Assembly: GCA_010093995.1 (NCBI GenBank)
Contig: ML992507.1
Coordinates: 202,781 to 266,780 of the forward strand
From: Elsinoe ampelina
Taxonomy: Eukaryota
Length of the DNA: 64,000 nucleotides
Direction: 5' to 3'
How positions within the stretch are numbered: position 1 is the stretch's first letter; every line of letters begins with the position of its first letter. The notes under the pieces are model-generated. The model saw only the letters and a list, made by a program, of their open reading frames with translations, did no database searches and had not been told where the DNA came from. The position numbers and the translations under genes were made by a program. Of the stretch, positions 8,350-42,488 are shown in pieces.

Positions 8350-10793
8350 GGTCACCAGCAAGGTAGGATTCCTTCGCAGTAAGATCCTGTGTAGTAGTGT
8401 CGTCGGCGCAAGGAGCCCGGCTCTCTCACATATCGTGTGCGAAAGGACGTGGTTGGATCCAAGGAAGTCGAAGTCTAACGTACGGCAGGCACGACGAACT
8501 ATCTTAGTCCAAGACCAAGCAAAGAGCCCCTCTAACAAGGCGGGTCGAACTTGTTCCTCGGGCAGGACGATGGCCGACAAGAGTAAAGTACTAGTCGAGT
8601 ACCTTTGGCTTGCCTTGTGGACAGAGGTAGAGGTGGACCGTGAAGGCTTCATTTCACGGTACGAGCTACAACTTACACAGCACATAGTTTGGCAGGCGCG
8701 AGTCAACTCTGTCAAGATGGCGAGATGCTCATGTCGCTTGGGGCGGTCGTGGAGCGTGCAGGAGTCGTGGCGGGCTCGGAAAGAGTGCTAGCGTTCCCAT
8801 TGGCACGGGAATGGCAGAGATCGGTCTTCGGACCACGAGATGGAGTACGCCTCTGCCCAGATTTACCAGACTTTAGCCTGGCTGAATCATGTGTTGATCG
8901 GCAGGGGGGTGAATATGGCAACAGTAGATGATTGGCAGTGCTCACGCGGCAGAAATAATAGCCAGGCATGGCAGCATGAACCAGTCGCCGTCCACGTGTG
9001 GCAGCACTTGCATGAATTGTCGATACCCTCAGCAAAGGGCAAGTCAAAAGTGGAGTGAAGTCGTATGGGTGGCTGAAGGTTCCAAAGAAGTTGGTCGGCC
9101 TGTCCCAGCAGACTGATACGCTACCAGTGGTGCAAAGCACAGAGGGCACGAGAGTACTGTACCCGCTCCAGGACCGTGCTCCTTTCGACAGCTTGTCAGG
9201 ATACTACTGTACCATCTCGAGTCGTATGGAGCTCTGGTGCCTGTGGTGGATTTGTTGGTTTGCCCCTTGTGCCTGTCACTATACGACAACCACATGTCCG
9301 CACACCACACTCCGGACACTACTCGGAAACCACAATACCGTTGTAGGTGCTCATATCTGATTTGTTACCACCAGGGACACATTTTTGCTGTCACCTTGCC
9401 ACGAGCATCAGACTTTCGGTGCTTGTCTCAGTTCAGGCCAGTTACTGGGCGACGCCAACCGACATGCACGAATCCTTTTCATTATACCTCACTGCAAAAA
9501 AGACCTGCCACCAACCGTCCGCGCGGGACGAAGATGGTACCTGGATCTGGTCATGATCGGAGAGGTCTGGACACGGCAGGCCCAACACTCTCCACTGGTC
9601 TGTGCCAAAGCGACGAGGGCTGCTTTGCGGGAGAAGGCCTCATGTCTCACACTGACTAGTGCACATCCGACCTGCACGCTGTATCGACGCTGTACATGAG
9701 TCTTTGTCACTCGCTTGCTTGAACCTTTTGAGACAGGACAAATTTTGTCCGATCGGTGCCCGACCTGCCCCTAGTGGGACTACTCACTACGTGTCATTCT
9801 ACCCCCCTTGGCAGGGCAAGGCATCTTGACTCTTGGTGACGACCATCGCCCATCAGTCCCCAATTCTTGCTGGTGGCAGTGGTGTCCCTTAAGCTTGTCT
9901 TCACTGTATACAGTCAAGCGTGGTCATCATGGACGGCTCTACGTGATGAGCCTGATCTAGTGGTAGATCATTGGCTGGCACGGATGTGAGACACGACATC
10001 CATCGCCTTCGAGACGTGGGAGAATGTGGGTTGGGACAGCAAGATTTTATCTGCTCAACTTGTCCTCCGAGGCTTGACACCAGCGAACATGAGCGGAGCC
10101 ACCGCGGTGGGGGATGTTTGAGACTGATTGGCGCCATTCGACAAACCCTTTCTTCTCTGCATCCACTTCCGACTCGTGCGGTATCACAAGTATCACCGAG
10201 GTGACCTCTAAAGTTCTACCACTTCGAACACTAATCACGACCGAACCAGGCGGCTCTCTGCACTCACTCAAAAAGAACACCACACCCGGGAACGTGTCTC
10301 TCAGAGCCCTAAGACCTTCTCCACTCGAGATACCGCACATACCATCGCTTAGCTCTTTTAGCATCAAAACTCAATTTCGCCTGCGACTCGTCAGGGACCA
10401 CTTTGCTTAGGCCTGTCAAGCCCATCTAATCTCGGACGGCCCTTTTCCTGCACAGAAACATGCTCGAAGTATGCATGTCGCCGCTTTTGCCGCCTGCCCG
10501 CAACTGCCGACCATTGAACCACGACGCACCAATTTGACTTGGTAAGGAATCGCCTGGTACAGTATTGCCACGATCGTCTTTTCGCCTCCGTCTGCGCCGC
10601 AATGGGTTCTTTGTTGGACATGGCGCATTGTTTGGTCGGGATTCCTCCGTCCGTGCTAGAAGGTAGGTCTTCTTCATATACACCCCGAGGGTCTGTATAG
10701 CAGACACTTCTGGCATCCTTACCACTTTCCTCCCCTGTCATTCTTACCCCCTTGTGGTATTTCGAGTGTGGTTGACACTACTCATCCGCCATA

Positions 10794-12730
10794 ATGTATT
10801 CTCAAAACTTCTTGGCTTCGGCCGTCCAGCTCGTCAGCGTTGCATCTTTGCTTAATACTGTTACTGCCCTGCCAGGCCATGGCAGATACATCCCTCGCCA
10901 GGTCACGGATGAACAGGCGCGCGGACAGACTTACGACTACATCATCGCTGGTGGCGGTCTCAGCGGTCTGGTTGTCGCCAACCGCTTGACTGAGAATCCT
11001 CGTGGTAAGCACGACATCTTCATCCACACGTTTATACATGCTAAGAACGTGCAGTCAAGGTCCTTGTCATCGAATATGGTGGATTCGACAACTCTCTTAC
11101 TGCAAGTGTACCATACTTTGCCAATGGCCTCAACTTTGCCTCCATGATCCCCACCACATCTGCCCCTGATGCGGGTCTCAACAATGCTTCCTTCCCCGTC
11201 CTCATCGGTGGTGTTGTCGGAGGCGGAACTGTCGTCAACGGAATGGCATACAACCGTGGTGCTGCATTGGACTACGACTCGTGGGAGGCACTAGGTAACG
11301 AGGGCTGGGGCTTCTCCTCTCTCCTCCCGTACTTCCGCAAGAGCACGACCTTCCAAGCTCCTTCGCCTGCTGCCGCAAAGGAGTACGGGCTCACCTACGA
11401 CCTCAAGGCATACGGCAATGGCCCCGTCAAGCCCGCTCTCACCAACTTCCAGTTCCCCGACCTCAAAAAGTTCTGGCAAGCATGGAAGGACTCCGACGTC
11501 CCACTCCCCAAAGAACACGGTCTCGGTGGTGCCGTTGGCGCCTTCTGGATGCCCAGCGCCATCGATGTCAAGCGTGGTCGCCGCTCCGACGCTCGCGCCG
11601 ACTACTACGACCCTGCCGCCGACCGCACCAACCTCCAACTCCTGATCAACACCGAAGTCACCGAGGTCCTTTTCCAGAACGGCCTGACCGCTTCCGGCCT
11701 CTCCTTCACCAACCGCCTCAACAACCGCACCTCCCGCGCCTACGCCAGCCGCGAAGTAATCCTCGCCGCCGGCGCCATCAACACCCCCAAGATCCTCCAA
11801 CTCTCCGGCATCGGCCCCCGCGCCGTCCTCAACGCCGCCAAAATCGCCGTCAAGCTCGACCTCCCCGCCGTCGGCGCCAACTTCCAAGACCACCCCGTCG
11901 CCTACCTCAACTTCAACCTCTCCAACCAAGCCTCCCCCAACAGCAACACCCTCGCCGTCGACCCCGCCTACAACGCCAGCGCCTGGGCCGAATACGACGC
12001 CCGCAAGACCGGCATCTACGCCTCGGGCCGCGGCAACGGCGTCGCCTTCCTCTCCCTCCCGCAAATCTCCACCACCGAGTTCGCCGAGTCCATCTCCGCC
12101 CGCGTCGGCAAGCAAAACGCCCCCTCGTTCCTCCCGGCCGCCTACGCCGACCGCCAACTCCTCGCCGGCTTCCTGGAGCAACGCCGCCTCCTGTCCGAGC
12201 AGTACGGGGGCAACGACGCCGCCGTGTCAGAGTACCCCTTCTCCGGCGGCGGGGGCTTCGTCGCGGCTGCCTTCCAGAAGCCGCTCTCGCGCGGCACCAT
12301 CACGCTCGACCCGGCCAACCCCAAGGCGCAACCCGTGATCCAGTACAACACGCTGCAGAACCCGCTCGACGCAGAGATGGTGCTGGCCGTCGTGCGCAAG
12401 GCGAGGGCGTACTTCAAGCAGCCGGCGTTGGCGTCGCTGAACCCGGTGGAGACGAGTCCCGGCGCGCAGTTCGAGACGGACGAGGCGTTGTTGGGCGCGT
12501 TGAAGCAGGGGGTGCTGAACCCGAGTTTCGCGCATCCGGCGGGCAGTTGCGCGATGAGCCCGAGGAGGTTGGGGGGTTGTGTGGATGCGCAGCTGAGGGT
12601 GTATGGCACCCAGAGGTTGAGTGTTATTGATACGAGTGTTATCCCGATGATCCCGGCGGCGCATTTGCAGGCCAGTCAGTATGCGGTTGCGGAGAAGGCG
12701 GCGGATTTGATCAAGGCGAGGACGAGGTGA
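10794..12730 (+). CDS. Secreted GMC oxidoreductase (AA3_2, aryl-alcohol oxidase/choline dehydrogenase-like)
   Basis: Signal peptide; [12 protein letters not shown]; intron 11005..11054; [24 protein letters not shown]; His pair FAHPAGSC and [13 protein letters not shown]. Confidence 0.92.
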
Positions 12731-13022
12731 GGGATGAGTTGGCTGGGGAAGGAGGATGTTGGTCAATGGGGAGTGGATCGTTGTAACTCTTGTGTATAGC
12801 TTCTGAATCTTACTGTTGATACTACCAGCTTGATGGTTTCCCAAAGTGCATGAGCGTTGATTTGTGCGAATGTGGTAGTACATGGACACCAAAGGGCCAA
12901 TTGCTGGCTCTCACCTGGTAGTATTCGAGCGCCAGGAACTATCAGGATAGTCTCAATGCATAGAAGCCCTGTCATCGATGTCGTGCACTTCTGGTAGTTT
13001 GCTACAGACTTCCTACCAGACC

Positions 13023-15326
13023 TCACGCCCTGACCCCGAATCTCCCCTTTAGTCTCTCGTACCTCTCCATGCCACCCACACTCGGCTTAACCTCACCCAC
13101 GGCCTTCTCGAAATCCTCCAAAACCACCTCCCCACTTCTCCTCCTCAGCGCCATCAACCCTGCCTTGCGCGTCAGACTATCCAGGTCCGCCCCGCTGTAC
13201 CCATCACAACTACTCCCTCTCGCCAGGGCCGCCAACTCCACCTCCCCAGGCCAACGCCCCCTCTTCCTCTTCGGACCAACCAACGCCTCCAGAATCTCCG
13301 CCCTCTCGTCCGGCCCCGGCAAATCCACAAACAACAACGTCTCCAACCTCCCAGGCCGCAACATCGCATCGTCAATTATGTCCGGCCTATTCGTCGCAGC
13401 AATCACATATATCCCTTCCCTACTACTCAACCCGTCCAACTCCGTCAACAACGTATTCACCACCCTCGCACTCGCCTCGCTCCCCGCTTCATCCCGCCGC
13501 GGCACCAACGCATCCAACTCGTCGAAGAAAATCACACACGGCACCGACGACCTCGCTCGCGTGAACACAGTGCGCAACGCCCTCTCCGACTCCCCCACGA
13601 ACTTGTTCAACAGCTCCGGCCCCTTGACAGAGATGAAATTGGCTTTACTCTCGTTCGCGACCGCCTTGGCAAGTAGCGTCTTGCCACAACCAGGTGGTCC
13701 CCAGAGGAGCACGCCTGCGGGCGCTGTGAGACCGAGACTGGCGTAGCGGTCAGGGTAGCGGATGGCGTCGACGATGGAGAGTTGGAGTTCTTCGCGGACG
13801 GCGCGGAGGGCGCCGATGTTGGTCCAGGTCGTGTCCGGGATGGTGGCGAAGCCTTCGCGTTTGGAGGAGGGGATGATGAGCGGGAGGACGGAGAGGAAGG
13901 ATTCCATTGTTACGAGAGGGGAGGAGAAGCCGGGTGGTTCAGGGAGGGTGGTGTTGCGGAGGCGGCTGGTGAGGAGGCGGTAGGAGTGGAAGATGGGGTT
14001 GGTGGAGGAGGAGGAGGGAGCGGGTTCGTCGAGGTCCATGGCTGAGGATGTGGTAGTTTCTGGCGCTTCACTACCAGGTTGTTCATGATTGCTGGTAGTA
14101 ATTGCAAGGGACCCATTCTGTTCCAGCTCCAGTGCTTGCTGCTTGAGCGCCTTGGTGTAGAGCCTGGTTGTATATGCGCCGGCTTTTCCTACCAGATCGC
14201 GTAGATCCGCGCCGACGAATCCAGGGGTCATCCTCGCTAATTGCTCAAAGTCAACATCTTCTGCTAGCGGTGTGTCTTTTGTAAGAGCTTGTAAGATGAG
14301 CGCCCTCGTCTTTTCATTCGGCACGCCCATGTTGATCTCTGTATCGAACCGTCCTCCCCGTCTGAGAGCCGGATCGAGACTATCCGGTCTATTTGTTGCA
14401 GCTAGCACAATAACAGGCTTACAATCTTCATTCTTGTTCTCCATTTCCAGACCATCCATGGAGATGAGCAATTGAGCGACTATGCGCTTTTCCATCTGAC
14501 TTTGCGAGGACTCTCGCTTGGGTGCAATGACATCAATCTCGTCGATAAAGAGTATACATGGTGCTGCCCGACGTGCCTCTTCGAACGCGTCCCGGACTTG
14601 CTTCTCGCTTTCACCAGACATTCCCGAGACAATGGACGGACCGAGGATTTCCACAAGAGGCACGCCAGTTTCGGCAGCACATGCCCGAGCAAGTTGGCTC
14701 TTACCTGTCCCTGGTGGGCCGTAAAGGAGTACACCACGAGGTAGCGGCAGCGACATTGAGGCGTACAAGCTCGGTTTGAGCATGGGGAGCGCAATGATCT
14801 CTTCCATGCGCTCAACAATCTCGTCCACGCCGCCGAGATCCTCGAAGCGGACAGAGGGAGTCGGGGGCACCACAGGACGAGGCTTGCTTTCTTCTTTGTC
14901 GTCTCGCTTGCGCTTCTTGCGGGTCTCATTACTACCAGGCTTTGGTGATCCTGGTAGGTTTAGGGTACCATTAACTACCACTTCCGGTGTCTGCATCTTC
15001 TCCGCAGGCGTTGTGGTCTTCCAGGCTTTGGTCAGAGATTTGTTCATGAGGTTGATCTCTTCGGGTGGCTGCGACTTTCTCTGCTGTGCTTCGATTTCTG
15101 CTTCCGAGTCTGCTTCGTCCTCGGCTAGTGCATCCAGTACTCGTTCCAAACTATTCTCGACCAGCTTCTTCGGCCTTCGTCGCAGATTCGAATTCGATTT
15201 TTGTATAGCGTTCCACAAGCTCGGCACTGTGGCTTCCAGCTTAGAGTCATCCAGGAGTCTGACCACAATCGTATACACCTCGCTGTCCAGGCCAGCGGAA
15301 AGTCCGCCCCCTCGTCGAGCTGGCAT
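13023..15326 (-). CDS. RIX7: Ribosome biogenesis AAA+ ATPase Rix7/NVL
   Basis: Two AAA modules (GPPGTGKS...FIDEID and GPPGCGKT...FFDELD), PSSKREGFATIPD linker, basic NLS RKKRKR. Start taken at MPARRGGG. Confidence 0.92.
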   Translation of the reverse strand: MPARRGGGLSAGLDSEVYTIVVRLLDDSKLEATVPSLWNAIQKSNSNLRRRPKKLVENSLERVLDALAEDEADSEAEIEAQQRKSQPPEEINLMNKSLTKAWKTTTPAEKMQTPEVVVNGTLNLPGSPKPGSNETRKKRKRDDKEESKPRPVVPPTPSVRFEDLGGVDEIVERMEEIIALPMLKPSLYASMSLPLPRGVLLYGPPGTGKSQLARACAAETGVPLVEILGPSIVSGMSGESEKQVRDAFEEARRAAPCILFIDEIDVIAPKRESSQSQMEKRIVAQLLISMDGLEMENKNEDCKPVIVLAATNRPDSLDPALRRGGRFDTEINMGVPNEKTRALILQALTKDTPLAEDVDFEQLARMTPGFVGADLRDLVGKAGAYTTRLYTKALKQQALELEQNGSLAITTSNHEQPGSEAPETTTSSAMDLDEPAPSSSSTNPIFHSYRLLTSRLRNTTLPEPPGFSSPLVTMESFLSVLPLIIPSSKREGFATIPDTTWTNIGALRAVREELQLSIVDAIRYPDRYASLGLTAPAGVLLWGPPGCGKTLLAKAVANESKANFISVKGPELLNKFVGESERALRTVFTRARSSVPCVIFFDELDALVPRRDEAGSEASARVVNTLLTELDGLSSREGIYVIAATNRPDIIDDAMLRPGRLETLLFVDLPGPDERAEILEALVGPKRKRGRWPGEVELAALARGSSCDGYSGADLDSLTRKAGLMALRRRSGEVVLEDFEKAVGEVKPSVGGMERYERLKGRFGVRA

Positions 15327-33046: not shown

Positions 33047-34343
33047 ATGGCACGCACAGCGCTTGCTAGAGCTCTCTTGCGCCAACGTCCTTCACATACA
33101 CTCACACAGTCACTCCGAAAGAGTCTTATACCATGTCGCCCCTACAGTCTCGCAGCAGACGATGCGTCGGATCCGAAACTCCGAAGACTGGACACGGCAG
33201 CCCTCACTGTGCAGAAGACCACGACACCGAAGGAAATCACACCGAATGAAGAGCTTGTCTTTGGCCGACACTTTTCAGATCACATGCTCACAATCGAGTG
33301 GACGGCGTCAGAAGGATGGCTCGATCCGCGTATTACACCGTATCAAAACTTTTCGTTGGACCCGGCAACATGTGTGTTCCACTATGCGTTCACTTGCTTC
33401 GAGGGGTTAAAGGCATACAAGGACAAGCAAGGGAATGTGAGATTGTTTAGACCGGACAAGAACATGGCGAGAGTGAACAAATCGGCAGCGAGGATTGCAT
33501 TGCCTACATTCGAGGGCGACAAGATGATCAAGCTCATCAAGGACTTTGTTAAGACGGACGAGCGTTTCGTACCTTCGTAAGTTCAAGGACGATTGTTTCG
33601 ACGTGACCAGATCACTGACCAAGAACAGAACAAAAGGCTACTCCCTATACCTCCGACCAACCCTCATTGGCACCCAACGCACCCTCGGCGTCGGCCCACC
33701 TGGCTCCGCTCTCTTCTACTGCATCGCCTCCCCGGTGGGCCCATACTACCCCACGGGTTTCAAAGCCATCTCCCTCGAGGCAACCACCTACGCGGTCCGA
33801 GCATGGCCCGGCGGCGTCGGCAACGCAAAGCTCGGCGCCAATTACGCCCCGTGTATCGTCCCCCAGATGCAAGCTGCAAAGCGTGGTTACCATCAGAACC
33901 TCTGGCTCTTCACGGAGAATGGCGAGGAGTACGTCACGGAGGTCGGCACGATGAACCTCTTCACCGCGTGGGTGGCGGAGGATGGCGTGAAGGAGTTGAT
34001 CACGGCGCCACTGGACGGGACGATTTTGGAAGGTGTGATGAGGGATAGTGTGCTTGAGCTTGCGAGGGAGAGGCTGGTGCCGGATGGGTGGAGGGTGACT
34101 GAGCGGAGATTCACAATGAAGGAAGTCGATAAGGCGGCGAGTGAGGGGAGGATGCTGGAGGTTTTCGGGTCGGGTACAGCGGCTGTTGTCAGCCCTGTGA
34201 GGAACATAGGTTGGAGGGGGAAGACGATTGATTGTGGTCTTGAGCCGGGTAAGGAGGCTGGGCCTGTGGCGCAGAAGATGTGGGATTGGTTGGCGGAGAT
34301 TCAGTACGGGGAGATAGAGCATCCGTGGAGCTGGAAGATATGA
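33047..34343 (+). CDS. BAT1: Branched-chain amino acid aminotransferase, mitochondrial presequence
   Basis: Arg-rich N-terminus; [43 protein letters not shown] (PLP Lys); EVGTMN; intron ~33577..33628. Confidence 0.95.
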
Positions 34344-35122: not shown

Positions 35123-35690
35123 CTTGAAGGTGATCCGGTTTGACAAAGTTCATTCCGCTACTGTGCAGAACTGTGATCAGTGCTGTCCCATGGTGGGTCC
35201 GCTCCGGCGTGGGTGAAGCCTGCCTTGATATGCTGCAAGCGGGGTTCCTTAAGACTTGTTCGCTTGATATCTTCGGGCTATTGAATGGCCCGTCGACAGA
35301 TTAATGCTGGCCACGAGGACCATTATCGCAATCGAGGCAACGTCCTTTGCCGTCAGGCAAACGCTAATGCAAGCCAGTCGTATATTTGGGCATGCAGGAC
35401 CCCGCGCTAATGCATCACTAGCTGCACCAAAATATAGATGCACTCTCGTCTCAGTATTATAAGCGCATCAAGGAACGCAGACACCGAAGCAATTCAAGAC
35501 TGTCCCGAGCTATGGAATGCGTCAGACTGAGACTTAGCTTCTTGCCCCCATTGCATCGTCTCGCTCACGAATGACTGGCGTTCTGGATCAGGCCAATGCA
35601 CGACTGAATAATGGTTCCAGGGGAGGTGTCGTGCAGACGCTGCAGGATTCGAGCGTCAGATTCTGGAGATGCAAGTGTGAACAAGCGGAA

Positions 35691-38600
35691 TCATGGTGCG
35701 GTCCGTGCTGTATCACTCTCGACTCCAGCACCCAGATGGGTCATTGACGCCGCCAAATCGCAGCGACCGTCCTGCTCATAAGCTACTGCCAGTGCTTGTC
35801 GTGTCTTGAGTCGAGCCGAGGCATTTTGTATTGGAGCCTTCTCTTCAATACGGTCAATATGCTCCAGCAATTCAATGGCATCTTTGCAAAGTCCTAATGC
35901 CCTTTGAGCTTCTGCTAGCTCGCGCTGGGAGTGTAGACGGGAAGGATGGTCTTCGGGCAGAGTTTGCTTTTGGATCCTGACAACTCTCTGGAGGGTCTCA
36001 AGTGCCAATTTCGATCGCCCAGTCTTGATGTACACACGTGCAAGACTTCGTTGAAGCACTAGTCGCGGTTGGTCCTCGTCCGCCCAGATTTCGCGAGAAG
36101 TATGGCTCACGTAGTCGAGTATTCCCTCCGCGTCCGTGAGCTGGTCAATATCAATGTAGCAATCAGCGAGTTCCCGCTTAGAACTCAGCAAAGAAGGATA
36201 CTCTGGTGCTTGCTGCTGACTTTCAACCCTGATGACTTCCAAGAGCAACTTTATCGCACGCTCCGGCGATTTGGCCTGCTGATATGTCAACGCGAGTTGA
36301 TGCTGAGCTTGTAATCTTGATAAATCGTTTTTTGGAAGATTTGTTGCCGCGATGTCTACTATACTCTTGAGCATTGATATCGCTAGCTCATCTCGTCCAC
36401 AAGATCTGTACATGATTGCCAGCATGTACTCCGAGATGAGTCTCGATTTGTGATTCTCTGGTAGTTTCGCGCTTTTGCTGCGGACTACAGACTCCATCAG
36501 ATTAATCGCCAAATCTAGACGGCCTTGCTTGTCGTGTGCCTCGGCAAGTCGATGCTGGGAGTCGAGCAGTAACAAGCCATCATCAGGAGGTAGAGCGCTT
36601 TCACACTTGCGAACAACACTTTCCAGTATTCTTACGGCATCTGCGGCTTTGCCATTTGCAAGGTGAACGCTTCCTAGGAGGTACTCAAGAGTAAATTGCT
36701 TTTTCGGGCTGGGGCAACAGGACTTCTTGCGGCCGTCACAAATTTCGAAGCAGTGCAAGGCCTCCTTACATTTGCCGTCGTCCAGAAATCGCTGTCCGGC
36801 ATGCAGGACGAAGTCAAATGCGTGTCGTACGGGCTCGTTCTTTGCGTCCTGGAGGACATAGAGCGCATGAGGAAGGTACAAGGTCGTAACGGCTTCTTCT
36901 GCCATCGATAGGCGCGAGAAGATAGAGTCTAAGCGCCGGAGAAATTCCGCACGCTTCTTGCTTGCGTCTTCTCTCATCTTCAGCCATCGTCTCGCAGCGA
37001 CATGCACTAGCCGGTGCATTGTTAGTGTCCTCGGGGTGGAGGTGGAGTCCCGCTCAATGAAGTAGTGTGCAGCGAGCAATCCTAGTGCCGTATCTAAAGA
37101 CAGCCGCTTACCAGGTAGTATCGACTCGGGAATAGCTTGGTGGTTGATGACAGAGATAGAAAGTATCAATTTAGCAGCGTTCCGATCGTATGCGAGAATT
37201 CTATCGAAGGTAGCGAGCCAGGTCCGCATCAGACTTCCGCTGAAGCTTGAATGGCCAGCCCAGAGGTCGACAAGAGCATCTGAAACATCTCTTTCGTCTC
37301 TGTGAGATTTCAATAGAAATCCAGAGTATTCTTCGATGGACCTGTTGCTGCGCTTTGCGCATTTGGCAGCTTGCACGATTGCCAAGGGGATGAAGTCAAG
37401 TTTTTCGACCAGTGCCTGCTGTGCAGAAGTGGAATTGCCGCGTCCTATTGTACCATACACGGACTGCAGAAGGTTCAGGGCTTCGTCGGAGTCCATTTGC
37501 TCGACCTTTAATCCCTCACAACCAAGTTCAACCGCCACTTGGAGATTCTGAGTCGTGATCAGGATCTTGCTATACTTAGTGGACCGGAGGAGATTGGTGA
37601 CAAGCGAGCTACCGGGCACATCGCAGTGATCCTCGTAGACAGTGCATTCGTCCAAGCCGTCTAGTACCACGACCCAATGGCCAGCTGTACTGAGGGATGA
37701 ATAAGTATTCACTGCCTCGTGGATGGTTTTGTATGTATCACTGGTGATGTGATCCGTGTGAAAGCCCAACGCAGTATAGGCTTGATCATAATCCCTGACA
37801 CGTTTGACTGGTACCCACAGGATACGCAGTTCAGGAATGCGGCTCAGCATGTCGTACACGAATGCAAGAGCAATTTGTGTTTTACCGATTCCACCAAGTC
37901 CAACCAATGCAACTCTGTTGTCTTCCTCCGTCTGTTGAAATCTGGCATACAGACTCTTCAGGATACTTGAACGACCGACGAAGTGGCGATTCTGCGCTGG
38001 CGGTACTCCTAGGAGACGAGACTTAGTAGGAAGGATACTGTCTGGCGAATATTAGTAAGTGAGAGAGGCAAGACCGGCAAGCTTTTAATGACTAGCCTTT
38101 CGACTCTCTCTGCGTCATGGAATCTGCTTGATCAGACATTTTCTTCAGAGATTCAAGGACCAGCTTGAACGACTGGTCTTCTGGCCCGGAATATTTGTTC
38201 AAGGTCAAGTGATCTGCGGGTAATTGTATGGAGTCGTATCCGTCAATGTATGCCGATGATTCAGAGACAATCTGTAACCGGTCAGTTGGGGTTGCTTCAC
38301 GATAGCTGAGGGCAACAGACTATGGCACTTGTCCATCCGCCCCATAGGCCGCTTTTAGTCACATCCACTGCGTATTGTTCGAAGAAGCAGTTGACCAAGA
38401 TGGGGTAAGTCTTGATCAAGCTGCAGAATCTTCGATGTTTGTCTCGGAGCACGGTCCCATCATCTTGTAACTCGTCAATGATATCCCTGTGGGAACCCAC
38501 AGGTTGCATGACAGCAGCAAGAAAGGACGCCAGCGGTTGGACTTTGGTGCCTCGCAGAGGCGAACCAAGAAAGATAATTCCAGCCACTAAATTGATCAAT

Positions 38601-39144
38601 GGCTTGAATTTTGCTTCATCGCTCGCGAACAGGAGTGCCTGATGCAATGTAAACATTCATACATTCCGTTCGGACATAGTATAGATGACTGAGAAGGTGT
38701 ACTGAACACCCGCTGCGTAGAATTGGTTGTAAAGGACCTGACTTACCTGCTGAATGACATTGCCCCCCAAGCTATGGCCAATGAATATGATCGGACGACG
38801 ACCATGCTCTTCATGGAAGATGCTGATATTGCGTATCAATAATTCCGCTATCAATGAAAGTCGAGTGACGGGGACATCTTTCCCCAACCACCGCGAATCA
38901 TGGCTGTAAGCGACTACACGCGCTTCGGGTATCCTGCCGGGTAACATGTCTGGATGCTCCAGCCAGTTTACTTCTCGATCTTTGTCCATCCATTTCCAAG
39001 ACCAGTTCCGGTTTGCACCGAGACCGTGTACGGCGAATATGCTTACATAGTCAGCGATGAAAGGATTGCGTGGAAAGGTCTACACTACTCGACTTTGGCT
39101 TCTCCCTCGGGCTCGTATAAGACGTGGTAGGCTGCATTTTCCAT
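35691..39144 (-). CDS. Fungal NLR: N-terminal SesB-like alpha/beta hydrolase + NB-ARC + C-terminal TPR array
   Basis: Spliced N-terminus KVDIFAVHGLG..W..VNWL...ARV...RPIIFIGHSLGG (Ser nucleophile)...GIIFLGSPLRGT...DHLTLNKY. Then RHFVGR, Walker A GLGGIGKT, Walker B WVVVLDGLD, ILITTQ, FIPLAIVQAA, MHRLVH. About 7-8 TPR units of the HPSRLHSQRELA type. Four introns. Confidence 0.88.
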
Positions 39145-39525
39145 TGGAGGTGACAGAGCTATCCTCCAGGAAGTGAGTTGTACATTGCCCAGCGCAAGAT
39201 CGACGAAGACTGGAGCGTACAATAGCGACAGTCGGCTCAAGCGTAAGCCTTGGTGACCTGCGGTCAGATGACTTTGAGGTCTTTCTTCAAAGTCTGCGAA
39301 ACATCAGCTCAGCCATGCCCCAGAAATTTAGGCAAATTAGTGACGGATAGCTGCGCGCTAATGTAGTGACCATAGTATAATGCATTAGTGGGAAGTGATG
39401 TAACATTGTATCTTTTACCGATCCTGCTGCAGCGCGTAGAGCTGTCGTGCTGGCGGCTGATAAAGTCGTTTTCTTCTCGTGTGATCGTATGCGGCATTTT
39501 GAGGTCGTCGTCTTTTCTTGAAGCC

Positions 39526-40497
39526 ATGCCGCCAGTCGCCAGTGGAACGATCTCCATTCCGTTTTCCTCGCGGGTCGCCCTGTGTAATAGAGTGTCCGGC
39601 GATCTCCCCGGCCATCCAGGTTTACAAATTAAAGAGACCGAATCAGCCGACATATGTCCGTCTACTCTCAGCTTTGTTGGGCAGGATTTGGACACAGAGC
39701 AACTGGACTCCGTGGCGCACAAACTTTGGATCTTGACAACGCCCAAGGCTTCCAACATCAGCCCGTTGCATCAGCAGCTTCTCAAGGGTAGGAGGATCGT
39801 TCTTACAGAAGCTGCTCGCCTTCATCTCACTTGGATTCATGACAGAATCTTCATCAAACCACTCCCGGAGTACTTGCTATCACATTCTTTCTGGACACAA
39901 CTCAGCGTCGCTCATGGCGAAGACGACCGAAGACACAAAATCTCCAACTCCGCGAAAGGCATCTTGCGGAGCTACGCGCACTTGATCCGCCACCAGTCTG
40001 ATTTTGAGATTGCAATACGCAAGGAACATCGATTGCTTCCTGCCGATGTGACATGGCCAGACTTCCGCTATTTCGCCCAAGAAGTGGAGGTCATTCAAGA
40101 CTCCCAGGTGGCGGATAGATACAGGTGCGGCGAACTCCGTTTGTCGCGGTTGAACCTCTATGCACCATTCCTATTTGGATGCTTCTACTACGAGCAGATC
40201 CACTGGGAGTACGCGGACTACTTCGCCAGGTTTTTCGGGCCACTCGCTTTCGTCTTTGCTGTGTTGTCAACTACCATAGGGGCGCTGCAATTACGACTGG
40301 CAGCGGACAATGCATCGCCGATAGTCACGGCCAGCCTGCGTTCGGCTTGTCGAGGGGTGAGCTGGTTCATCTTGAGCGTTGTGGCAACAGGTGTAGCAGT
40401 GCTGATTTTCCTATGGCTGTGGATGCTTCTCGACGAAACGATATATGCTGTGCGGTTGCGCTGGAATCACAGAAGGACCAGATGGAGCCTGACATAG
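39526..40497 (+). CDS. DUF6601-like fungal protein with two C-terminal TM helices
   Basis: Motifs LWIL...ISPLHQQLLKGRRIVLTE..LHLTW..RIFIKPLPEYLL..FW, GILRSYAHLIRHQSDF, RYRCGELRLSRLN; two hydrophobic segments (PLAFVFAVLSTTIGALQL; WFILSVVATGVAVLIFLWLWML). Family recognised from memory. Confidence 0.78.
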   Translation: MPPVASGTISIPFSSRVALCNRVSGDLPGHPGLQIKETESADICPSTLSFVGQDLDTEQLDSVAHKLWILTTPKASNISPLHQQLLKGRRIVLTEAARLHLTWIHDRIFIKPLPEYLLSHSFWTQLSVAHGEDDRRHKISNSAKGILRSYAHLIRHQSDFEIAIRKEHRLLPADVTWPDFRYFAQEVEVIQDSQVADRYRCGELRLSRLNLYAPFLFGCFYYEQIHWEYADYFARFFGPLAFVFAVLSTTIGALQLRLAADNASPIVTASLRSACRGVSWFILSVVATGVAVLIFLWLWMLLDETIYAVRLRWNHRRTRWSLT

Positions 40498-40628
40498 CAT
40501 GACTCAATCATAATTCTTCGCACCCCTCTTCTGACTCGCGAGAAGCAGTCCGTCCTTGTGCACGACGATGACATGTCAACACTACTGCCAGAACACGCAT
40601 TCCTGCTCTGTTGACTCTTGCCTGCAGC

Positions 40629-41373
40629 ATGTCTCATTGTCACAGTGAGCATGAGGGGCATGGTCATGATCATGGTCACGACCACAACCACGGTGCTCAC
40701 GACCACACGGATGACATTACTCCTGCTCTACAAAATCACATCTATCAGCAGATCGACTTTAGCGCTATCAATACGCTGAACGAGTCCCAGTCACGCACCG
40801 GCGCCGCTATCTGTCAAAAGGCATGGGACGAACGACTCAATCCAGATCCCGAACTATGCAGCGACGCAGACGAGCAGCTACTGATGCACATTCCGTAAGG
40901 TCCCAAGACATAACCGGCGAAGGACAACTGCTAACAAACCCAGCTTTACCGCCCAGATCCGTCTTCACGCCATGTATATTCGTACCTCACCCACTTCGTC
41001 CGCTCCTCAAACCCTCAAAGTCTTCATCAATCGAGACGATCTCGATTTCTCCACAGCCGCAGACTTGCAACCCATCCAAACCTTCTCGCTCTCACAGACT
41101 TCGGACGTCCAGGAGGTACCCGTCAAAAGAGCATTGTTCAATACTGTACGCTCACTCGACCTCTTCTTCGAGAACAACTGGAGCAACGGTGAAGAGGACG
41201 AGACCAGGATCAGCTACATTGGCTTCAAGGGTGAATGGATGCAGTTGAGCAGAGAGCCAATCAATTTTCTCTACGAAGCGGCGGCGAATCCTGGCGACCA
41301 CAAGATGGTTGCGGGGGTGAAGGGCGAGGTTGGGAGTAGGCTTGGTGGTGCTGGAGGGAGGGATGGCATGTGA
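40629..41373 (+). CDS. PITH domain protein (PITHD1-like) with His-rich N-terminus
   Basis: MSHCHSEHEGHGHDHGHDH; ELCSDADEQLLMHIP/FTAQ; LFFENN; ISYIGFKGEW; YEAAANPGDH; intron 40895..40943. Confidence 0.9.
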
Positions 41374-42488
41374 GGGTGATTGGTATGCCATCTTATACCA
41401 CCACGGACCTCCAATAACATGCAATTGTAATACATGTTACAGTCATGCTAGATCAGACTAGGCCTGGCCAGGAGGTCGAACACGCTCGTACATCAGGTCA
41501 TGGTCTCGAACACGGGCTGCCTGCAGCAATGCCGGTAAAGGACACCACGAGGACTGTGACTGGCAACTGGACACGAGATAGACAGTACAGCCGCCTCTCC
41601 AGAGGCGCGAGCTGGACTGTTGACGTCCTCTCGAGCCTGGTAGCCTCGGCTATGACGAGGGCTTTAACGACTACCCGCACCGTTGAGATCTGATACAAGA
41701 CCTCTTGAGGACCCTGCACTCACTACTCGAAAGGGTCGACCGTGGTACCCCTGGAGCAGACGTCCATGGAATTAGGTCATCCATCACAGAAGGATTCATC
41801 TACAAACTAGAGACCTCGTCAGTGGGATGCAAAAGCAGGCCGTCATCCCGCGGCTGGATCTCGAGATAACGTAGTTATCAGCCTAAGCAATAACCTTGAA
41901 CTGGGAATACGGATGGGACTTCAACTTTGTCAGCAAATGTATGATACTTCATTCACAGCTCTTCGACGTCAAATTGGAGTACACTGCGTCGGGACAGTCG
42001 CTATCGAGTGCTATTGTCGCTGCAGGACCACCGTTGACAACAAGTGTGGTCCAACGGTCTGCGGACCGTCCCTTGACTTGACACCTGACACATGTCTGTC
42101 TTGCTTGGCTGCTGTTAGTCTGTCATTTGTGTTCACCATTTCCGTCAAATACTGCTCGCAGTGAGCACTCATACTCGGATCCGCCTTGAGATTTCTGGAC
42201 TGCTGTCACCTGGTCTCAACATGCTTCACTGAGCTGTGACACATGGGACGCACCTACGACGCCCAGCAGCCGGGAGCGGCATATGTCATAATATCAAAGC
42301 TTTCCGTGAAATGTCTGAATAAGTATGCAGGCAAGTCCGCTACACTATTCCTCGGTCATCGACATATACGTTCCTTGCAGCTTTTCCTTTCGCAGGCTGG
42401 TCCTGTCCCTGTTTTTAATCTTCTTGTCGTTTCACTCTTTGCATTCTCTTATCACGGTGTACTCTCCTAATCACGTTCTACGATCAAT

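Follow-up and report, generated by a model that had tools for sequence, protein, structure and literature searches.

A 64,000-nucleotide stretch of contig ML992507.1 of Elsinoe ampelina, hereafter the window, carries a gene for a NOD-like receptor (NLR) and, starting head-to-head with it, a gene for a membrane protein of the DUF6601 family. This locus is probably one copy of a widespread and conserved two-gene module of filamentous ascomycetes, in which an NLR with an alpha/beta-hydrolase head is combined with a DUF6601 membrane partner of that head. The two genes of the module usually lie head-to-head and 0.4-1 kb apart, and the conserved domain of DUF6601 has ~230 residues. The recurrence of the pair in distantly related fungi points to a putative two-part defence or cell-death module that appears to be undescribed.

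The frequency of the pairing was determined in metagenome contigs. Thirty-four DUF6601 proteins were aligned, the patterns of the alignment were scanned against the contigs, and up to 10 kb were kept per side. Because the loci were fetched with DUF6601 patterns alone, the sample is unbiased toward NLR genes. The 80 loci obtained formed 54 clusters at 90% nucleotide identity, of which 32 were informative, their upstream flank being 1.5 kb or longer. Searches by tblastn with pieces of the window NLR and of the database protein P0121 found a homologous hydrolase domain on the opposite strand, just upstream of DUF6601, in most of the closest loci. Hydrolases were detected with a purpose-built hidden Markov model (HMM) made from the loci, which was run on all six-frame open reading frames (ORFs) and its exon hits stitched. 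The start of a hydrolase domain lay head-to-head within 1.1 kb of DUF6601 in 17 of the 32 informative clusters, and a hydrolase gene was present anywhere in the flanks of 24, so that the enrichment of NLR neighbours named by the first-pass annotation of this DNA as the check on its proposal was indeed found. Four further clusters of the 32 had the head-to-head layout with a gap above 1.1 kb, three of them with a gene in between; the intervening genes were DAO in L027/L028 and an MFS transporter in L054 and L065, while the gap in L038 was 2 kb. The other arrangements were one tandem downstream (L049), one tandem upstream (L057) and one weak distal match (L046), and no hydrolase gene was found in the flanks of the remaining eight (L040, L042, L055, L056, L059, L064, L066 and L070). 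A lenient Pfam scan of the ORFs adjoining unpaired DUF6601 genes revealed no hidden hydrolase or NLR; the lenient scan matched only CHAT (L046), a weak NPHP3_N (L057), a MULE transposase (L059) and, in the hydrolase ORF of L026, a weak DUF6842.

Over all 54 clusters, the hydrolase was head-to-head within 1.1 kb in 20 and head-to-head at a larger distance in 4; it lay in downstream tandem in 3, in upstream tandem in 1 and distally in 1, and the other 25, mostly short contigs, had no hydrolase match. Grouping at 70% amino-acid identity left 14 of 27 informative groups head-to-head and 21 of 27 with any hydrolase gene, and grouping at 60% left 10 and 16 of 22, respectively. As an internal control, the inner flank, taken as up to 3.6 kb from DUF6601 and totalling 241.6 kb, contained 27 hydrolase N-termini, and the outer flank of 253 kb contained 2, which corresponds to a hydrolase gene density ~14 times higher in the inner flank. 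The pairing of DUF6601 with the hydrolase exceeds chance.

An excess of this kind could also arise without any direct interplay, if both genes reside in fast-evolving islands rich in NLR and het genes and share regulation there, the membrane function of DUF6601 being unrelated to the NLR. The occurrence of NLR, HET, SesA and RelA_SpoT genes and of transposases in the same flanks agrees with this explanation, as do the eight unpaired clusters and the unclear make-up of the metagenome contigs that were counted. However, the orientation and distance bias of the pair speaks against immune-gene islands as the full explanation, since the head-to-head layout within 1.1 kb is found in 20 of the 54 clusters, and downstream and upstream tandem in only 3 and 1, and the hydrolase density is concentrated in the inner flank. 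The enrichment is moreover limited to the hydrolase-headed class of NLRs, and the adjacency has outlived local rearrangement. In L013 and L016, nearly identical pairs from different samples, the NLR of L013 is located on the other side of DUF6601, in tandem and still adjacent, with a remnant of the TPR repeats left upstream. We therefore regard the absence of interplay as unlikely, slightly more so than the guard model discussed below.

Gene models that join DUF6601 to other long domains were restricted to two among the relatives examined. P0121 of Coleophoma crateriformis has DUF6601, hydrolase, NB-ARC and TPR in a single gene model; it was not counted as proof of natural fusion, as it probably consists of two merged tandem genes, given that its DUF6601 part ends after the first helix. 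P0252, a model of 1106 amino acids with a CPAF-like PDZ and Peptidase_S41 before a complete DUF6601, is a lone case, possibly also of merged genes, and was likewise not counted as such proof. In Curvularia clavata, beside the KK-1 cluster, a DUF6601 ORF and then an NB-ARC/TPR_12 ORF of 1014 amino acids occupy consecutive table rows in the available part of the source (PMC10512319). The neighbourhood of the metagenome loci is thus also seen in two named genomes, those of Coleophoma crateriformis and Curvularia clavata.

The part of the NLR that stays with DUF6601 is the hydrolase head. Wherever the contig was long enough, the hydrolase gene was found to extend into an NLR of the NB-ARC or NACHT type; in L004, Pfam matched none of the ORFs that follow the hydrolase. 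NB-ARC/AAA_16, sometimes with DUF7779, and TPR_10/12 followed the hydrolase in L001, L003, L008, L016, L019, L023, L032, L037 and L077, and L021 has the same NB-ARC-TPR class in tandem arrangement. NPHP3_N/NACHT with ankyrin repeats was observed in L009, L026, L028, L038 and L071, and with GPIID_WHD and WD40 in L051, L054 and L065, while in L025, L033, L057 and L058 the nucleotide-binding oligomerisation domain (NOD) of the NPHP3_N/NACHT group was seen alone. In a maximum-likelihood tree built from 58 DUF6601 sequences, every major clade contained paired loci and the NOD classes were intermixed, and at least five switches between NB-ARC and NACHT are required. The constant partner of DUF6601 is thus the hydrolase head, whereas the NOD and repeat modules are exchanged.

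This constancy bears on a guard model, in which the repeat domain of the NLR would watch DUF6601, linkage would co-inherit compatible alleles and the head would kill alone. The model has a precedent in PLP-1 of Neurospora crassa, a patatin-headed NB-ARC-TPR NLR which binds the t-SNARE SEC-9 and responds to it, and for which a guard reading has been proposed (available sections of PMC12881547). The tight linkage and co-diversification of the two genes fit the guard model too. However, a guardee is expected to follow the sensor, and DUF6601 stays with the hydrolase while the sensor (TPR, ankyrin or WD40) and the NOD (NB-ARC or NACHT) change. Furthermore, DUF6601 is multi-copy and fast-evolving, unlike the conserved single-copy housekeeping protein SEC-9. 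Because DUF6601 follows the hydrolase and not the repeats, a partner of the effector head is favoured over a guarded target of the TPR sensor, and the guard model is considered improbable, though it ranks first among the rival explanations. The first-pass annotation had named both a membrane effector and a guarded partner of the NLR; of these, the role on the effector side is retained, as a partner of the head, and the guarded role is disfavoured.

The unpaired loci do not form a clade and are scattered singletons, since the 11 unpaired rows of the tree need 10 changes; three of them (L059, L044 and L080) neighbour paired close relatives. The DUF6601 frame was broken by stops or a frameshift in three of the eight unpaired clusters (the L055 group, L059 and L064) and in one of the 17 informative head-to-head clusters (L030/L032). 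Distances between DUF6601 sequences and between their hydrolases were correlated over 26 pairs (Mantel r 0.81, with none of 5000 permutations as high), at median amino-acid differences of 59% for DUF6601 and 71% for the hydrolase. DUF6601 and the hydrolase are inherited as a unit across deep divergence, and the Mantel correlation by itself is no proof of physical co-evolution.

In the window, the first-pass annotation had reported a gene of hydrolase, NB-ARC and TPR diverging from a DUF6601-like gene, and Pfam matches, gene models and contig joints bear out both at their positions. Contigs of four public runs, guessed to be of RNA, were aligned to window positions 35500-41500. They are in keeping with spliced transcripts, because five joints have splice-site ends, four GT-AG and one GC-AG, and the joint of a neighbouring PITH-domain gene (40894/40944) is present in all four runs. 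The NLR gene, with the sesB-like hydrolase/NB-ARC/TPR architecture, occupies 35691-39144 on the minus strand and encodes 1064 amino acids in five exons (39144-39089, 39041-38747, 38638-38321, 38271-38097 and 38041-35691), as modelled from ORFs and contig joints. Its product is identical to the database protein P0122, a hypothetical protein of Elsinoe ampelina at NCBI. Introns 1, 3 and 4 are backed by the joints 39041/39089, 38271/38321 and 38041/38097, and intron 2 lies outside the coverage of every contig. Intron 4 (38042-38096) is of the GC-AG type, with the ends CT..GC on the plus strand in run X1, and an alternative GT-AG choice would give a protein four residues shorter (1060 amino acids). 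The joint 38041/38097 shows that the exons for the hydrolase and for NB-ARC belong to a single transcript.

The effector domain at the N-terminus of the window NLR, an alpha/beta-hydrolase of the sesB-like, DUF676/PGAP1/SERAC1 type, covers residues 19-281 of P0122 (38098-39090, minus strand), with an E value of 7.7e-72 to the purpose-built HMM and a Pfam match of Abhydrolase_6 on exon 2 (E 8.9e-6). It is followed by the NB-ARC switch (37374-37940, minus strand), with Walker A GLGGIGKT and Walker B VVLDGLD, for which the Pfam match to PF00931 is marginal (25.7 bits against a cut-off of 23.5), and by a TPR repeat region (35859-36683, minus strand), the presumed sensor, with TPR_12 at E 1.1e-25 and TPR_10 at E 3.1e-15. 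The GHSLGG, Walker A, Walker B and MHRL motifs described earlier were located at residues 107 (GHSLGG), 329 (GLGGIGKT), 406 (VVLDGLD) and 623 (MHRLV). The window NLR fits the catalogued sesB-like/NB-ARC/TPR class on its hydrolase head, NB-ARC and TPR, an assignment made independently of the sesB HMM of Dyrka et al.

The DUF6601 gene (39526-40497, plus strand) consists of a single exon and encodes 323 amino acids, 100% identical to P0001. The Pfam domain PF20246 spans residues 49-284 (39670-40377, plus strand) with E 1.2e-74 and 251.5 bits against a cut-off of 27, and model positions 3-238 of 240 are aligned. The partner protein is therefore a full member of the family, beyond the 'DUF6601-like' of the first reading. 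Hydropathy delineates a C-terminal membrane hairpin (40222-40437, plus strand), formed by hydrophobic segments at residues 233-258 (40222-40299) and 274-304 (40345-40437), the second of which is followed by a basic tail of 19 residues at the C-terminus. None lies before residue 220, in accordance with the soluble N-domain and two C-terminal helices proposed at first. Contigs span 39552-40459 of the gene with no plus-strand joint, and both genes of the window are real and transcribed. At position 40180, contigs of runs X2, X3 and X6 have C in place of T, which changes Cys219 of DUF6601 to Arg; K or R is commoner in this column of the family alignment, and this is the sole contig difference listed over the examined stretch.

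The two ATGs are separated by a spacer of 381 bp (39145-39525), as given by the gene models, which agrees with the shared region of ~380 bp in the first-pass annotation. The spacer is probably no simple bidirectional promoter, because a minus-strand GT-AG intron (39749-39806) was detected within the DUF6601 coding sequence from a joint at 39748/39807 in runs X1 and X3. The shorter side of this joint is 30 bases only and the contigs are unstranded; an unspliced contig also spans 39749-39806. One X1 contig reaches from exon 2 of the NLR over intron 1 as far as 39748. The NLR transcript, through its 5' untranslated region, or another antisense RNA seems to begin inside the DUF6601 gene, so that the mRNAs overlap 5' to 5'. 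A hexamer, GGCTGA/TCAGCC and often in the form CAGGCTGAG, was found in 20 of 21 head-to-head spacers, where it tends toward the middle, and in the window spacer it lies at 39309-39314 and 39455-39460. In 200 shuffles the top count of any hexamer was 15 of 21 spacers, and among 18 control stretches taken from downstream of DUF6601, 7 contained GGCTGA/TCAGCC. From its distribution, it is a candidate shared promoter element.

The head-to-head layout and the conserved spacer motif would suit matched expression, and thus an antidote model, in which DUF6601, co-expressed from the shared spacer as an immunity or inhibitor protein, would shield the cell's own membranes from the lipase head, in the manner of an effector-immunity pair. 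An inhibitor would likewise be paired with the enzyme domain. Nevertheless, the effector heads of STAND proteins (signal transduction ATPases with numerous domains) are normally held off by auto-inhibition through the NOD and repeats, which makes a separate antidote unneeded, and intact DUF6601 genes occur without a hydrolase neighbour in L040, L042, L056 and L066. The antidote model is accordingly rated the least probable of the explanations weighed here, behind even the absence of interplay, and a partner of the effector head is still preferred.

The DUF6601 family is large. A profile search of 1.84 billion representatives gave 1857 matches at E <=0.001, counted as clusters at 50% identity, and 1469 at E <=1e-10; nearly all of the best 150 matches were 200-450 amino acids long. 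It is a multi-copy and fast-evolving family of almost only stand-alone proteins. Its typical member has ~330 amino acids and two hydrophobic segments near the C-terminus, a build shared by the window copy. Among 204 members of 300-400 amino acids, 196 had exactly two hydrophobic segments near the C-terminus and none had a signal-like N-terminus; the loop between the segments has ~15 residues and a net charge of -0.75, and the tail ~21 residues and a net charge of +4.2. According to the positive-inside rule, the basic flanks of membrane helices face the cytosol. From this rule and the basic tail, the N-domain and tail of DUF6601 are predicted to face the cytosol, where NLRs reside. The invariant polar residues of the N-domain include H82, Q84, R89, E95, H100, R107, D159, R198, Y199, R205 and R208 (P0001 numbering). 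In 61 of the 204 full-length members, the window copy not being one of them, the very last residue is a Cys after the basic tail, which may be a lipidation site.

Comparison with other families gave few clues. In a scan of 34 members, no Pfam family besides DUF6601 matched more than three, and a PDB sequence search with the DUF6601 profile returned no match at E <=10. The ESM Atlas model of P0001 has a predicted template modelling (pTM) score of 0.67, and its nearest structural neighbour outside the family in the Atlas is plant DUF247 (PF03140), with a template modelling score that, at 0.41 for 182 residues, lies below 0.5 and counts as a lead only. Genes for DUF247 are linked to grass self-incompatibility loci. 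Pfam matched DUF247 in none of the 34 members at E <=10, and a kinship of DUF6601 and DUF247 finds no support at the sequence level. Many DUF6601 proteins (P0006, P0019, P0022, P0030 and others) bear the UniRef label 'Subtilisin-like serine protease'; no peptidase family matched any of the 34 members scanned, and the label looks like a propagated error.

The paired hydrolase looks, from its conserved residues, like an active enzyme. The catalytic His is invariant in all 26 DUF6601-paired hydrolase domains, and a scan of 28 loci recovered the nucleophile motif in 24, in addition to the window. In these 24 loci, the nucleophile is Cys (AHCFGG) in 14 (L001, L003, L004, L008, L016, L021, L023, L025, L028, L029, L032, L033, L037 and L077), Ser in nine and Asp in one (L010), and in the window it is Ser. 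The motif is encoded in a mini-exon of ~50-60 bases, which the gene model P0121 skips. ESM Atlas features of the head lead to DUF676/PGAP1/Abhydrolase_6 clusters and SERAC1 (0.88-0.91, leads only), and one of these leads is a DUF676 cluster from fungi, 15% of whose members have NACHT_sigma. A PDB sequence search with the hydrolase ORF of L026 returned no match at E <=10. The Atlas leads agree with the literature, where the sesB-like domain is described, in the sections available, as a lipase/esterase related to SERAC1 (Dyrka et al. 2014, PMC4986451).

Several known systems resemble the pair, as far as the available sections of their sources describe them. For 80% of 1,884 fungal gasdermin genes, a protease gene lies within 10 kb, and some of these neighbouring proteases are heads of NLRs of the S8/NACHT/WD40 type (Clave et al. 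2022, PMC8851545). As in the pair described here, a gene for a small membrane-targeting protein adjoins a multidomain gene with an enzymatic domain in these het-Q1/het-Q2-like clusters, where the enzyme domain and the neighbour are functionally linked, and the clustering of 80% with a protease is similar in frequency to the 24 of 32 clusters with a hydrolase. They differ in that the enzyme here is an alpha/beta-hydrolase of the esterase/lipase type and the partner has a C-terminal hairpin, the pair being known from its genes alone. Neither the window NLR nor the window DUF6601 had a Pfam match to Gasdermin, Peptidase_S8 or CHAT. PLP-1 and SEC-9 likewise combine a lipase-type head on an NB-ARC-TPR NLR with a membrane-acting partner, and they interact physically, whereas the evidence for the present pair is genomic. 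The head of PLP-1 is a patatin and its partner an essential SNARE, in contrast to the sesB-like head and the multi-copy DUF partner which follows the head here; no Patatin or SNARE family was matched by Pfam in either window protein.

In the amyloid clusters of the NWD2/HET-S and sesA/sesB/het-eN types, the NLR gene also adjoins a downstream partner gene (PMC9815663, PMC4986451, PMC3321046), and SesB of these clusters is the founding member of the lipase-like domain family found on the window NLR. There, by the available accounts, a short amyloid motif takes the place of an effector domain on the NLR and corresponds to a matching motif at the C-terminus of the partner, whereas the window NLR carries the effector itself. 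Its hydrolase starts as early as residue 19, and HET-s, NACHT_sigma and the other prion-motif families of Pfam, a set without dedicated amyloid-motif profiles, gave no match at E <=0.01 in either window protein, which upholds the earlier view of a non-amyloid pair. NLRs with the architecture of the window NLR, sesB-like/NB-ARC/TPR, are already known, for example Podospora Pa_2_10340, and the catalogues in the sections at hand treat the NLR alone, while here it is paired with DUF6601 (PMC4986451). The neighbour analyses in the available text of PMC9815663 were limited to NLRs with short N-termini (amyloid), and in that of PMC12258605 only NLR-NLR head-to-head pairs were considered. In the literature searched, as far as its text was accessible, DUF6601 or PF20246 was mentioned only in a table of PMC10512319, and a search for 'sesB-like' with 'transmembrane' led to the review PMC12881547, the available sections of which do not treat the pairing. 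Neither name occurred in the supplements searched (12 of 17 files of PMC12258605 and 9 of 11 of PMC9815663), and the other files could bear on novelty. The architecture of the NLR is already catalogued; its pairing with DUF6601 appears to be undescribed.

NLRs have effectors as their N-terminal domains, and NOD-driven oligomerisation switches these effectors on. On this basis, a signal would cause the TPR sensor and the NB-ARC switch to oligomerise, which would cluster the hydrolase heads, and the clustered heads would act at the membrane through DUF6601, anchored by its C-terminal two-helix hairpin with the domain on the cytosolic side. Two versions of the last step can be envisaged. In the somewhat favoured one, DUF6601 would be a subunit for docking or activation, by which the soluble lipase/esterase would reach its lipid substrate; in the other, following the logic of protease and gasdermin, DUF6601 would itself be the substrate of the enzyme, and its modification would lead to membrane damage. 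In both, non-self would be answered by regulated cell death or by remodelling of the membrane.

A more far-reaching reading, which we put forward tentatively and hold to be possible rather than probable, is that DUF6601 is a third kind of NLR-controlled membrane executioner, next to the two kinds already known from amyloid/HeLo and protease/gasdermin modules, or else an obligatory membrane co-factor, so that sesB-like heads would act on or through it and not on bulk lipids. As an example within this same tentative reading, the head might remove an acyl group from DUF6601. The frequent Cys nucleophile of the paired hydrolases and the terminal Cys of about one third of DUF6601 proteins would be in keeping with such a thioester chemistry.

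Several points weigh against the proposal of a conserved module. The interplay of the NLR and DUF6601 proteins is proposed from gene neighbourhood and sequence comparison. The pairing is frequent yet not obligatory, given that eight of the 32 informative clusters lack a hydrolase gene, and its frequency was counted from the DUF6601 side and not from that of the sesB-like NLRs. The sample is made up of metagenome contigs with unnamed source organisms, and its clusters are partly non-independent. The hydrolase was found with a purpose-built HMM, and Pfam missed it in L026. The window pair lies on long branches, with at most 46% (DUF6601) and ~26% (hydrolase) identity to other loci, and linkage or common ancestry alone would also be expected to yield a Mantel correlation. 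DUF6601 loci are, moreover, often near other NLR or HET genes (L019, L040, L055, L057 and L059), and islands of such genes could explain part of the neighbourhood signal.

The window pair is flanked by a gene of the branched-chain aminotransferase type (33047-34343, plus strand; Aminotran_4) and by the PITH-domain gene (40611-41373, plus strand; Pfam PITH), which has an intron at 40895-40943; both had been recognised before, as BAT1 and PITH. Flank genes of the non-self-recognition type are located at 10621-14465 (+) of L019, 13215-13739 (+) of L057, 13077-14555 (-) of L040, 4298-6403 (+) of L055 and 11233-13401 (-) of L059; they comprise a NACHT-WD40 NLR, a SesA ORF, a RelA_SpoT ORF and HET-domain genes, and transposase ORFs of the MULE and DDE_1 families are present in L059 as well. 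A gene of the fructosamine-kinase type (Fructosamin_kin) lies beside DUF6601 or the NLR in L028, L051, L054 and L065, which belong to two clades of the tree.

The sesB-like heads are among the commonest effector domains of fungal NLRs, and in the available part of a survey of 82 Sordariales genomes they were counted on 964 (624+287+53) of 4613 NLRs, or ~12 per genome (PMC12258605). The conserved, oriented pair leads to the testable hypothesis that lipase-type NLR effectors have a membrane partner. A PF20246 gene beside a hydrolase-NLR gene offers a simple genomic marker for the annotation of such modules. If the hypothesis is true, the rule that a death effector is encoded beside its controller would extend from the amyloid and gasdermin systems to the enzymatic 'all-in-one' NLRs.

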